64,000 nt of DNA from the IMG/VR virus record IMGVR_UViG_3300032030_002018, one strand, 5' to 3'. Position 1 is the stretch's first letter. Each line of letters begins with the position of its first letter. The DNA is from a virus. Its lineage: Duplodnaviria; Caudoviricetes. The notes below the pieces were generated by a model, which saw nothing but the letters and a program-made list of their open reading frames with translations, had not been told where the DNA came from and did no database searches. Position numbers and translations under genes: made by a program. Positions 44,646 through 48,607 of this stretch are shown in pieces.

Positions 44646-44887
44646 ATTGATTTCAATTATAATATTAACAATACAAATATACACTAAAAAGAATCATTTC
44701 CAAAATTATAAATCTTAAAAAATCTTAATATCAGATTTATAATACACATACCTTGGTCTGACACAAATGTAAACAATTTATTTGAAATAACCAAATAAAA
44801 ACACAAAAAAATGCCACCAATGTTTTCAACATCGATGGCACACACAAACCAATAAACCCTTTTGAAATATGAAAGCGCGTAACAACT

Positions 44888-44996
44888 TGGTTGTATGAGT
44901 AGGATTCGAACCTACGAAGTCTCATAAGAGACAGATATGTTTACAGACATATCCCCATTTGTCCCGATGATTTCCATCTTCCTTTGGTATCATACA
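44888..44996 (-). tRNA. atypical tRNA-Tyr(GTA)-like gene, copy 1, CCA encoded
   Basis: acceptor tgtatga/tcataca, T-arm gtaggTTCGAATcctac, long variable arm, anticodon loop ctGTAa, extra hairpin in D-loop. Confidence 0.65.
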
Positions 44997-45002
44997 CATA
45001 AT

Positions 45003-45112
45003 TTGTTGTATGAGTAGGATTCGAACCTACGAAGTCTCATAAGAGACAATGCTTTTACCAAGCATCCCATTTGTCCCATCAGCGTGATGCTGATTTCCTT
45101 TGGTATCATACA
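45003..45112 (-). tRNA. atypical tRNA-Tyr(GTA)-like gene, copy 2
   Basis: same scaffold; anticodon arm atgct-tgGTAaa-agcat; different D-loop hairpin. Confidence 0.6.
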
Positions 45113-45188
45113 AGAGCAGATTTGTGCTTGCATTAACCTACAAGGTGGCATCGCACCCACTCCAATCTGCGAGGAGTATGTCTATATA

Positions 45189-45440
45189 TTATGCAGTGAG
45201 CATAATCATCTGTTTCTTGTCTTCGGGCGTATTCACCCACCACTCATCATACTCATCTTGAAGAGTATAATCTGTTGGTTCATAGGAGTGACGATTGCCA
45301 TCAAAGTTCTTTTGAAGAGCGCAATTCCTCTTGTAGATTTGCTCAAAGAACTCTTCCTTTGTATCGGCTGACCATCTTTCAGTTCTATTGACTGCTCCTT
45401 GCCAACCATCTTCACCAATGTAATTAACCTCAAATGTCAT
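45189..45440 (-). CDS. hypothetical protein
   Basis: 83-aa ORF after a TAtcTTTG promoter. Confidence 0.6.
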   Translation of the reverse strand: MTFEVNYIGEDGWQGAVNRTERWSADTKEEFFEQIYKRNCALQKNFDGNRHSYEPTDYTLQDEYDEWWVNTPEDKKQMIMLTA

Positions 45441-45527
45441 TGTCTATTTCCTTTCTTTTTTTTACAATGCAAAGATATATGTTTTATTTTAAAAAACCAA
45501 ATTCCTTAACATTCTTTAAGATTTTTG

Positions 45528-46088
45528 TGGGCTCAGTAGGGCTTGAACCTACGACCTCCAGATTCCTACCACTCTATGTTACCATAGCCAAACAAAACTG
45601 AGAGATTCGAACTCTCTGACTTTTAACAGTAACTCCACTGCTTTGTTTGTTGTGGTCTGGACTGTCTCAGTACCATATTGAAATTCTTGCAAGATATGAA
45701 TATATACTACTCGCACTTTTCAAAGCGTTACCTTTTAATAGGTGTATTATTCTCTCATATATACCCATAATTTCAACTTAGGTATCTCCCGTTCAGTCTC
45801 TACACGATTATGAGGTGTATAACTATGTTCAAATTCAACCGTCTCTTTCAACGATTCTTTTTGGACTTTCACCAACTGTGGTAGATGGCTTACTTCCATA
45901 GTTATTCTTTTCATTTTCGCTCGGTATTGTCCTTACACATTATTGTTTAGTGTTTTAACTTAGACAACCTTAAATTTCTGTCGCAAAGGGTTTCCACCGA
46001 ATTTAGGAGATTCTACTATGGGATTTCTCGCCATAGCACACAATTTTGCTAATGAGTCTGTTACTCTGACCAACTGAGTTATGAGCCC
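45528..46088 (-). tRNA. tRNA-Ile2(CAT) interrupted by a group I intron (exons 46052..46088 and 45528..45564)
   Basis: spliced product gggctcataactcagttggtcagagtaacagactCATaatctggaggtcgtaggttcaagccctactgagccca is a full cloverleaf; Ile2 rather than Met is inferred from body sequence. Confidence 0.85.
45565..46051 (-). ncRNA. group I intron (487 nt, no ORF)
   Basis: 5-prime exon ends in U, intron ends in G; P aaattcggtggaa, Q caataccgagc, R gtagagactga, S gacagtccagac elements. Confidence 0.85.
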
Positions 46089-47815: not shown

Positions 47816-48607
47816 CTATGAAATCCCATAGACTTGTTCATACTTCCTAAAATCGCAAGTCTTAATCTTCACAATCAATCTCTCCCCCATTCTTGTTCTC
47901 AACCCAAATGGTGCTTTCAATACCAATCCCTCTGCATCATAGTCCTTGTTCTCTGCAATGGTTGATTTAAACCCTTTCTTGACAAATTCTATTGCCTCAT
48001 CAATGGTCATCATTCCCATATTTGGAACACAAGGCGCACCCATCTTCTCTGCAATACCCCTATAATTGTCTGTAAGTAGATAGGTATCATTTACCTTAAC
48101 ATCAAAGACAATGAACCCAACACCATTCCTAATGTAGTTTCCACCACTCTGTATCTTCATACCATAACCCTCACCATATATGGTATAAAGATTTGGAATT
48201 CTCCCAAAATCAGGCTCACCCTTTTCATTCACCCAACGATGCCCCCCAAATTCATCAGTTGGGATGAATACCTTTAACCCCAATGCCTTCAACACCACAC
48301 TTGCAGGGTATTTCTCCTCTAAGAACGCAAGCAGATGCTCCGGAATCTGCGCACTATCCGTCTTACCCTTATACTCAACATAAAATGAAACCCCTATAAG
48401 TTTCTCCCCATTATCCACCAAATCACGATGCACCTCAATGCGAATGTTTGTACCATCAATCTTTTCAGTTGCCTCCCATTTGATTCCTCTCAACACCTCA
48501 AATTCTGGGGAGACAAAACTCCCATCAAGTATGATGATATTTTTGTCATCCCTCTTGAATAGGGTGTTTATTTTCTGATAAGTATTTGAACTCCTTTTCT
48601 GTGCCAT
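47816..48607 (-). CDS. RNA ligase, Rnl2-like nucleotidyltransferase
   Basis: motif I EKIDGTN, YGEGYG, FIVFDV, EGLVLK, KIK. Confidence 0.85.
   Translation of the reverse strand: MAQKRSSNTYQKINTLFKRDDKNIIILDGSFVSPEFEVLRGIKWEATEKIDGTNIRIEVHRDLVDNGEKLIGVSFYVEYKGKTDSAQIPEHLLAFLEEKYPASVVLKALGLKVFIPTDEFGGHRWVNEKGEPDFGRIPNLYTIYGEGYGMKIQSGGNYIRNGVGFIVFDVKVNDTYLLTDNYRGIAEKMGAPCVPNMGMMTIDEAIEFVKKGFKSTIAENKDYDAEGLVLKAPFGLRTRMGERLIVKIKTCDFRKYEQVYGIS

Follow-up and report, generated by a model that had tools for sequence, protein, structure and literature searches.

Tandem tRNA-Tyr-like RNAs with a predicted fifth arm in the D-loop, from giant phages that encode a tyrosyl-tRNA synthetase

The shape of tRNA is among the most conserved in biology. 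U33 of the anticodon loop is nearly universal among decoding tRNAs. Bacterial tyrosyl-tRNA synthetase (TyrRS) identifies its tRNA by A73, the acceptor stem, and the long variable arm; within the anticodon, G34 and U35 count for more than A36. Colicin E5 cleaves the tRNAs for Tyr, His, Asn, and Asp, with YGU described as an absolute requirement (PMC1635277). The effectors of retron-Eco7 deplete tRNA-Tyr, and a phage tRNA-Tyr restores infection (PMC11555353). For phage tRNAs with altered anticodon loops, evasion of host tRNases has been proposed (PMC10264068).

We analyzed a 64,000-nt stretch of phage DNA, referred to as the window, which carries a tandem pair of RNA genes related to tRNA-Tyr. 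The window comprises bases 201184-265183 of a 334,687-bp dsDNA phage record in IMG/VR (G000; 96% complete, G+C content approximately 33%). The record is that of a giant phage of the gut or rumen.

The tandem RNA genes and their predicted transcription unit

The features of the locus are listed in the order of the predicted transcription.

45470..45501, minus strand: promoter-like site of the Bacteroidota type, read from the sequence (putative)
45189..45440, minus strand: ORF of 83 aa with no assigned function (ORF call)
45113..45188, minus strand: spacer or leader of 76 nt, from the ORF stop codon to copy A, read from the sequence
45004..45112, minus strand: five-armed tRNA-Tyr-like RNA, copy A, 109 nt (RNAfold; model R1, 134 bits)
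45078..45094, minus strand: extra D-loop hairpin of copy A, AUCAGC-AUCAC-GCUGAU, 6 bp (fold)
45049..45065, minus strand: anticodon arm of copy A, AUGCU / UGGUAAA / AGCAU (fold)
44888..44996, minus strand: five-armed tRNA-Tyr-like RNA, copy B, 109 nt (RNAfold; model R1, 120.6 bits)
44966..44978, minus strand: extra D-loop hairpin of copy B, GAUG-GAAAU-CAUC, 4 bp (fold)
44934..44953, minus strand: anticodon arm of copy B, 6-nt loop CUGUAA on a 7-bp stem (fold)
44811..44841, minus strand: intrinsic-terminator-like hairpin, 14 pairs followed by a U run, 47 nt 3′ of copy B

When each copy was folded alone, the minimum free energy structure was a five-armed cloverleaf (RNAfold z-scores of −4.8 and −3.3; 0 of 200 shuffles equaled the native fold). 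In both copies the acceptor stem has 7 bp and the D stem 3 bp (CCA/UGG), the long variable arm pairs GUCUC with GAGAC, and the T arm is GUAGG-UUCGAAU-CCUAC; their D-loop reads AAGGAA, then the hairpin, then GGGACAAA. Copy A has U1 at 45112 and A73 at 45006, with the tail C-A. Copy B has U1 at 44996 and A73 at 44891, and is the only copy with an encoded CCA (44890-44888). An earlier sequence-only reading had described two copies of approximately 109 nt with identical acceptor, variable, and T arms, and both the sequence and the folds agree with this description, except that the genes lie on the minus strand. The D-loop hairpin and the anticodon stem, in contrast, differ wholly between the copies, and all of them still pair, as had been noted both for the hairpins (AUCAGC/GCUGAU in copy A, GAUG/CAUC in copy B) and for the anticodon stems.

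The extra hairpin of copy A has a folding energy of −7.5 kcal/mol, and 26 of 2000 shuffles folded equally well. Aligned by eye with the canonical tRNA-Tyr of the phage, the hairpin is inserted between D-loop position 16/17 and G18; provided that G18/G19 still make their tertiary contacts with the T loop, it would project from the outside of the L-shaped fold, at its corner. In the anticodon loop of copy A, position 33 is a G and positions 34-36 are GUA, and the loop of copy B grows to 8 nt if its inner U-A pair opens.

The promoter consensus in Bacteroidota is TTTG / TAnnTTTG. Just 5′ of the 83-aa gene we observed TTTG at 45501-45498, a 20-nt spacer, and TATCTTTG at 45477-45470, and we take this TTTG-N20-TATCTTTG arrangement (45501-45470) to fit that consensus. 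The TAnnTTTGCAnTG box was seen again in three of the metagenome contigs described in the next section (L061, L062, and L064), and it is from the promoter boxes that we infer the identity of the host. The 83-aa gene is probably co-transcribed with the RNA pair, in which copies A and B are separated by 9 nt, a spacing usual for a tRNA operon. Transcription would start at the Bacteroidota-type promoter, pass through the 83-aa gene and both RNAs, and end at the terminator past copy B.

The 83-aa protein had no Pfam match, and a protein query of IMG/VR returned no homolog. Four homologs with 70-94% identity were found, and four more (33-41% identity) adjoin five-armed RNAs in L061-L064. No homolog was found beside the five-armed RNAs of L065, of L066, or of the megaphages, and the protein is not kept across the whole five-armed family.

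The surroundings of the pair contain other RNA-related genes. A 263-aa RNA ligase (PF09414, E 7e-14) is encoded 2.7 kb away (window 47816-48607, minus strand), and its homologs in 41 related phage loci sit within tRNA gene arrays. A tRNA gene with the anticodon CAU (window 45527-46088, minus strand) is split by a 487-nt intervening sequence directly after the anticodon; ARAGORN sees this gene only when introns are allowed, with the anticodon mislabeled, and the intervening sequence had no Rfam group I intron match. Within the intervening sequence lies a mini tRNA-like element (window 45591-45676, minus strand), which lacks an anticodon arm and consists of a single hairpin, an acceptor-like stem of 8 bp, and a T arm that pairs perfectly (GAGAG-UUCGAAU-CUCUC).

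Family members, covariation, and the altered anticodon loop

A covariance-model search for relatives had been proposed together with the original observation. It was performed with a model derived from copies A and B (R1) and, on complete genomes, with a later model (R2), along with protein and pattern queries, and 20 further members were found in 10 other records, for a total of 22 members in 11 records. These other records are a 317-kb phage, a contig binned with a metagenome-assembled genome (MAG), four metagenome contigs, and four complete megaphages of approximately 410 kb. The four metagenome contigs (L061-L064) were reached through the 83-aa neighbor, with five-armed RNAs beside it at 40-54 bits (R1). 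L061b and L064 are full copies with a D-loop arm of approximately 52 nt (read from the DNA), and in L062 the start of a second tandem copy is visible. Tandem pairs in L065 (genome G042, the 317-kb IMG/VR phage) and L066 (a 13.7-kb contig from the bin of a Lachnospiraceae MAG) were recovered with a pattern of loop plus T arm. A TyrRS query led to seven more phage records, and in the four complete megaphage genomes R2 found two or three RNAs each (114-135 nt), with five arms as in the window.

Other queries were negative. The exact pattern of T arm plus acceptor and the L061-type loop pattern (the latter in IMG/VR) had no match, and blastn against GenBank phages gave short matches to ordinary tRNA-Tyr only. 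Synteny with the RNA ligase gave 41 related tRNA-rich records, all with canonical tRNA-Tyr only and none (0/41) with a five-armed RNA. The exact D-loop pattern had four matches in IMG/VR, which were chance matches inside coding DNA; a relaxed pattern of D-loop plus loop gave 15 further loci, all due to chance and blank with R1.

Covariation was examined in two sets of 11 members each, set 1 (the window and L061-L066) over the four standard helices and set 2 (the megaphages) over six helices. In set 1, 97.8% of cells were paired and 18 of 25 pairs had changed on both sides; none of 500 shuffles was as good, and sliding the partners by 1-3 columns lowered pairing to 35-47%. The D-loop inserts of set 1 each fold into a hairpin at one common site, with eight different helix sequences. 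In the megaphage set, 97.9% of cells were paired, with two-sided changes in 23 of 35 pairs overall and in 5 of the 6 pairs of the extra hairpin. Across the family this hairpin has a fixed position, more than 10 helix sequences, and a length of 13-52 nt, and it is capped by a GNRA tetraloop in many members.

Two-sided changes were thus present in every helix, the inserted arm included, which upholds the earlier proposal of compensatory change under selection on five arms; the absence of covariation from the inserted arm of homologs had been named beforehand as the outcome that would speak against it, and the homologs show such covariation. Because the inserted arm covaries, its structure must have been selected, and the five-armed RNAs almost certainly constitute a real, selected family derived from tRNA-Tyr. 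The suggestion of a new tRNA-like class likewise gains support from the compensatory changes in the 20 further members.

All members share U1-A72, U8, A73-C74, the D stem, and the long variable arm, and G2-C71 is usually present as well. The flanks of the hairpin are also conserved, with the purine-rich AGGA(G)AA before it and GGACAAA after it; in L061-L064 the flank is instead A-GCAAA, found together with a UGCAAAU T loop. No member has an unaltered anticodon loop. The loop UGGUAAA occurs in seven members (including copy A, L062, L065, and L066). In four members the loop is UGGUUAA, where position 36 has changed from A to U while G33-G34-U35 and the Tyr-type body are unchanged. G33 is present in 11 members. 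The eleven megaphage RNAs have an invariant UUCGUG on a 9-bp stem and, with the stem closed in this way, are without an anticodon. The statement that GTA is kept in abnormal loops therefore holds for both window copies but not for the whole family: since one lineage has GUU and the megaphages have UUCGUG, the dinucleotide GU is the sole element common to all loops.

The conserved set would therefore correspond to features recognized by TyrRS rather than to those needed for decoding on the ribosome. Judged from the loops, the five-armed RNAs are probably unable to decode normally and, family-wide, would not be ordinary decoders.

Accessory tRNA-Tyr genes with the same loop were also observed in cellular genomes. 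Daejeonella oryzae DSM 19973 has one extra tRNA-Tyr gene with the loop UGGUAAA (G33; L069 437-521), and a Pedobacter MAG has three (L067 6832-6920, L068 3540-3625, and L070 679-766). These genes have a normal D-loop and housekeeping neighbors, both genomes carry a canonical CUGUAAA tRNA-Tyr in addition, and the anticodon stems of the G33 copies differ yet still pair. This suggests that the G33 accessory tRNA-Tyr of Sphingobacteriales is a cellular counterpart.

Standard tRNA detectors miss the family. A check with ARAGORN and an Infernal-type Rfam search had been suggested from the sequence: neither window copy was called by ARAGORN (default) or by the Rfam tRNA model (RF00005), which matched only the 3′ part of each copy, at 16.1 and 14.6 bits, below its gathering score of 29. 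No five-armed member in eight loci had an Rfam tRNA match, and ARAGORN misses members there as well. No Rfam family reached threshold on any member, the tmRNA and Y-RNA models had no match, and no intron family matched the window copies. Because standard finders miss the genes, such RNAs are probably under-counted.

Measured against the features that define tRNA, the 7-bp acceptor stem, the UUCRANY T loop, the long variable arm, and A73 were all found, with the T loop of one lineage (L061-L064, UGCAAAU) as an exception. In place of an unbranched D-loop of approximately 7-11 nt, the D-loops are 26-60 nt long and contain a covarying hairpin, and an anticodon loop of 7 nt that has U33 and one constant anticodon was not seen. 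The five-armed RNAs are thus tRNA-derived yet lack three tRNA features: a score above the detector threshold, an unbranched D-loop, and a 7-nt loop with U33.

G000 itself has 16 ordinary tRNA genes, a canonical tRNA-Tyr(GUA) among them. This tRNA shares with the five-armed RNAs U1-A72, the acceptor stem, the D stem (CCA/UGG), the D-loop GG-NCAAA (G18-G19...CAAA), the long variable arm, the T arm, A73-C74, and, copy B excepted, the un-encoded CCA. Compared with bacterial type-II tRNA-Tyr (RF00005), the five-armed RNAs add a fifth helix of 13-52 nt in the D-loop, and the canonical CUGUAAA loop is replaced by a loop with G33, a 6-nt loop, or a closed stem. To judge from their sequences, the family is derived from a type-II (long variable arm) tRNA-Tyr and is found in giant phages with their own TyrRS.

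Further tRNA-like genes of unusual form were seen in G000 and in related loci. Outside the window, G000 has a tRNA-Thr(UGU)-like gene (G000:C1:309257-309385, minus strand) with an insertion of approximately 58 nt between the D and anticodon arms; it is missed by ARAGORN, and a normal tRNA-Thr(UGU) is encoded in G000 too. Also outside the window, the main tRNA cluster includes a tRNA-shaped sequence of 83 nt (G000:C1:313707-313789, minus strand), which is silent in ARAGORN and has a perfect acceptor stem and T arm. A conserved tRNA-like gene of 68-70 nt was found in L022 (3438-3507), in L023 (3944-4011), and in the same place in approximately 12 further loci related through the RNA ligase. Its anticodon arm is shrunken (3-4 bp, loop of 5-6 nt) with compensatory differences between phages, and it may be another non-decoding tRNA-like RNA. 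A 150-nt tRNA-Leu-like gene with large insertions at two sites, one following the D arm and one within the variable region, is present in L036 (3793-3942), L038 (6554-6703), and L040 (5551-5700).

Several elements were also observed beside the five-armed genes of other records. A leader hairpin lies 5′ of these genes in L061 (9447-9526 and 10468-10547), L062 (1826-1892), and L064 (1795-1860); it reads GGAAAGU...ACUUUCC, or GGAAAGA...UCUUUCC in L062, which amounts to one compensatory change. A block of approximately 60 nt beginning with GGGAUGUGUGACCCC is kept just 3′ of the five-armed RNA in L061 (9640-9700) and L064 (2012-2072). In the megaphages of approximately 410 kb, a tmRNA (RF00023; 64 and 53 bits) was found at L122 425-782 (plus strand) and L120 2456-2914 (minus strand), within about 1 kb of the tandem five-armed pair. 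In L121 and L115, an aberrant tRNA-like sequence with the T arm GAGUGG-UUCGAUU-CCAUGC and an acceptor-like end lies approximately 10-90 nt 3′ of a five-armed RNA, directly after one megaphage copy.

The tyrosyl-tRNA synthetase and possible functions

At about 16.3-17.6 kb (G000:C1 16309-17619), about 230 kb from the five-armed genes, G000 encodes a TyrRS of the bacterial type (TIGR00234, 352 bits) that is full-length and comprises both the catalytic domain and a C-terminal domain resembling S4. It was the only one of four synthetase families tested to be found, no member of the three other large families being detected in G000. The record also encodes a CCA-adding-type nucleotidyltransferase. 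The TGT family was absent from G000, which leaves a link to queuosine without support. G042 has a TyrRS homolog, and in G042 and the four complete megaphages with TyrRS we observed two or three five-armed RNAs each plus a canonical tRNA-Tyr. Five-armed RNAs were thus present in 6 of 6 complete phage genomes with TyrRS, and TyrRS was found in none of 30 other tRNA-rich phage records tested (11 of them at least 90% complete; 28 also among the 41 records related through the RNA ligase). The TyrRS proteins of these phages have 51-63% identity and all TyrRS phages found are relatives, so 6 of 6 and 0 of 30 are not independent evidence. The pattern is one of lineage-wide co-retention and not of six independent events, and the association may be through shared ancestry only.

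The mechanism that we tentatively favor is that of a stable, non-decoding tRNA-Tyr mimic that would work off the ribosome as a decoy. The five-armed RNAs would be excised and CCA-tailed as the ordinary tRNAs of the phage are. TyrRS would still recognize them, because A73, the acceptor stem, the long variable arm, and the loop G-U are kept, and they would not act as normal decoders. The mimic would tie up whatever host factor binds tRNA-Tyr or attacks it, for example an anticodon nuclease like colicin E5 or retron-Eco7 PtuAB, while its own cleavage site would be gone, with G33 in place of Y33 or with the loop closed into a long stem. Since YGU is required by colicin E5 (PMC1635277), the change from Y33 to G33 removes a nuclease determinant of the anticodon loop, for the colicin E5 type only. 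Tyrosine decoding would meanwhile be sustained by the phage TyrRS and the canonical tRNA-Tyr. The combination of its own TyrRS, its own tRNA-Tyr, and look-alikes with an inert loop is consistent with a conflict centered on tRNA-Tyr; that the RNA is specifically a decoy in a defense conflict is possible, if somewhat doubtful. The earlier reading had proposed decoys for anticodon nucleases or synthetases, or nuclease-resistant tRNAs; G33, the missing anticodon loop of the megaphage members, and the TyrRS of the phages would be consistent with these proposals. A decoy for an anticodon nuclease would need no A73, perfect acceptor stem, or CCA-compatible end, which points to an enzyme of the acceptor end (TyrRS or another).

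Instead of a mimic, the window type (7-nt loop, GUA) could be a hardened but working tRNA-Tyr, charged by TyrRS and reading UAY, with the G33 and the extra arm hiding it from tRNA-Tyr nucleases or modification enzymes so that it serves as a back-up once the normal tRNA-Tyr is destroyed. Copy A and seven relatives do keep the 7-nt loop, GUA, and A37-A38, and the occurrence of an identical UGGUAAA in the extra, ordinary-looking tRNA-Tyr genes of Daejeonella oryzae and the Pedobacter MAG, beside the canonical copy, would suit a hardened tRNA at least equally well. However, U33 is almost universal in decoding tRNAs, and the U at position 36 on a Tyr-type body in one lineage would misread Asn codons. 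Copy B has a loop of 6 or 8 nt, the megaphage members have no anticodon loop, and a canonical tRNA-Tyr is already available in the phage. The abolition of the colicin E5 determinant by G33 (PMC1635277) also favors hardening, and precedents exist in rescues reported for T5 tRNA-Lys (PMC11464382) and for tRNA-Tyr (PMC11555353). On balance we consider a hardened decoder unlikely.

An alternative that gives more weight to the acceptor end is a dedicated partner of the phage TyrRS, in which the RNA would accept tyrosine for a purpose other than translation on the ribosome, as the donor in some tRNA-dependent transfer, or would regulate TyrRS or serve it as a cofactor, be it the enzyme of the phage or of the host, with the extra arm and the altered loop excluding it from translation. 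The family-wide features are those that TyrRS reads, the RNAs occur in every complete TyrRS phage, and TyrRS alone was found among the four synthetase families; non-decoding aminoacyl carriers and Tyr-accepting viral tRNA-like structures are also known (PMC10870377). Against this stand the distance of approximately 230 kb between the RNA genes and the TyrRS gene in G000, where the two are not adjacent, and a co-occurrence that may be phylogenetic. We regard this role as quite unlikely, and its strongest form as correspondingly improbable, namely that TyrRS and the five-armed RNA are a private pair outside translation, the RNA being tyrosylated by the phage enzyme and barred from the ribosome by its elbow arm and disabled loop. 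If true, it would be a virus-encoded synthetase with its own non-decoding tRNA, which would carry tyrosine or act as a switch, either in a reaction specific to the phage or in the control of the host tyrosine system.

It is very improbable that the D-loop hairpin is an intron-like insert whose excision gives an ordinary tRNA. In its favor, the insert has a fixed site but a length anywhere between 13 and 52 nt, an RNA ligase gene is near, and the adjacent tRNA(CAU) is split by 487 nt. Removal of the hairpin, however, would leave a D-loop of 14 nt (window type) or of 7 nt without GG (L061-L064) and does not restore a canonical D-loop, which makes excision unlikely; moreover, conservation extends to both sides of the hairpin (AGGA(G)AA ... 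GGACAAA) and the anticodon loops are abnormal anyway. No group I intron and no archaeal bulge-helix-bulge geometry of the kind whose excision restores a canonical tRNA was found. Decaying duplicate pseudogenes of tRNA-Tyr, or a chance fold, would account for the missed detection and the abnormal anticodon loops, but this explanation can be dismissed, since 22 members in 11 records with approximately 98% pairing, many two-sided changes in every helix, a conserved position of the extra arm, and a terminator 3′ of the pair are incompatible with decay.

Comparison with known systems

The non-decoding mimic that we favor has several relatives in concept. Nuclease-evading phage tRNAs (PMC10264068; T5 tRNA-Tyr against retron-Eco7, PMC11555353) are similarly phage-encoded, with altered loop determinants and a retained aminoacylation identity; T5 tRNA-Lys against PARIS (PMC11464382) offers another such comparison, and the retron-Eco7 case establishes tRNA-Tyr as a proven defense target (PMC11555353). 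Those tRNAs, however, are four-armed and decode, whereas the five-armed RNAs add an arm and many would be unable to decode.

The TLS-Tyr of brome mosaic virus (BMV), a tRNA-like structure of plant RNA viruses (PMC10870377, PMC11791061), is likewise a viral multi-helix mimic of tRNA-Tyr that has no true anticodon and is directed to TyrRS, a property that we infer for the five-armed RNAs. TLS-Tyr acts in cis at the 3′ terminus of +ssRNA genomes, and its acceptor arm is a pseudoknot, whereas the five-armed RNAs are internal, free-standing tandem genes of a dsDNA phage with a plain 7-bp acceptor stem, an otherwise regular cloverleaf to which one arm is added, and a terminator, and the two have no sequence relation. 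The tRNA-like domain of tmRNA and the Y-RNA-like YrlA (PMC4201824) also mimic the acceptor and T arm without decoding; the five-armed RNAs differ from these in having a simple hairpin at the position of the anticodon arm and ends that pair as a normal acceptor stem.

The family bears on how much extra structure the tRNA elbow tolerates and on the use by phages of tRNA decoys, beside tRNA replacements, against tRNA-targeting immunity. Co-retention of the RNAs across a TyrRS divergence of 51-63% identity suggests that phage-host conflict, or phage control of translation, has a level specific to tyrosine, and the family offers a handle on the reason why giant phages carry single aminoacyl-tRNA synthetases.

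No description of such five-armed RNAs was found in the searchable literature, work on jumbo phages included (subscription journals lay outside this scope). As far as found, a maintained fifth helix within the D-loop is undescribed, and it represents a new architecture and a new genomic association among tRNA mimics. The five-armed RNAs resemble TLS-Tyr and the nuclease-evading phage tRNAs in concept and belong to neither.
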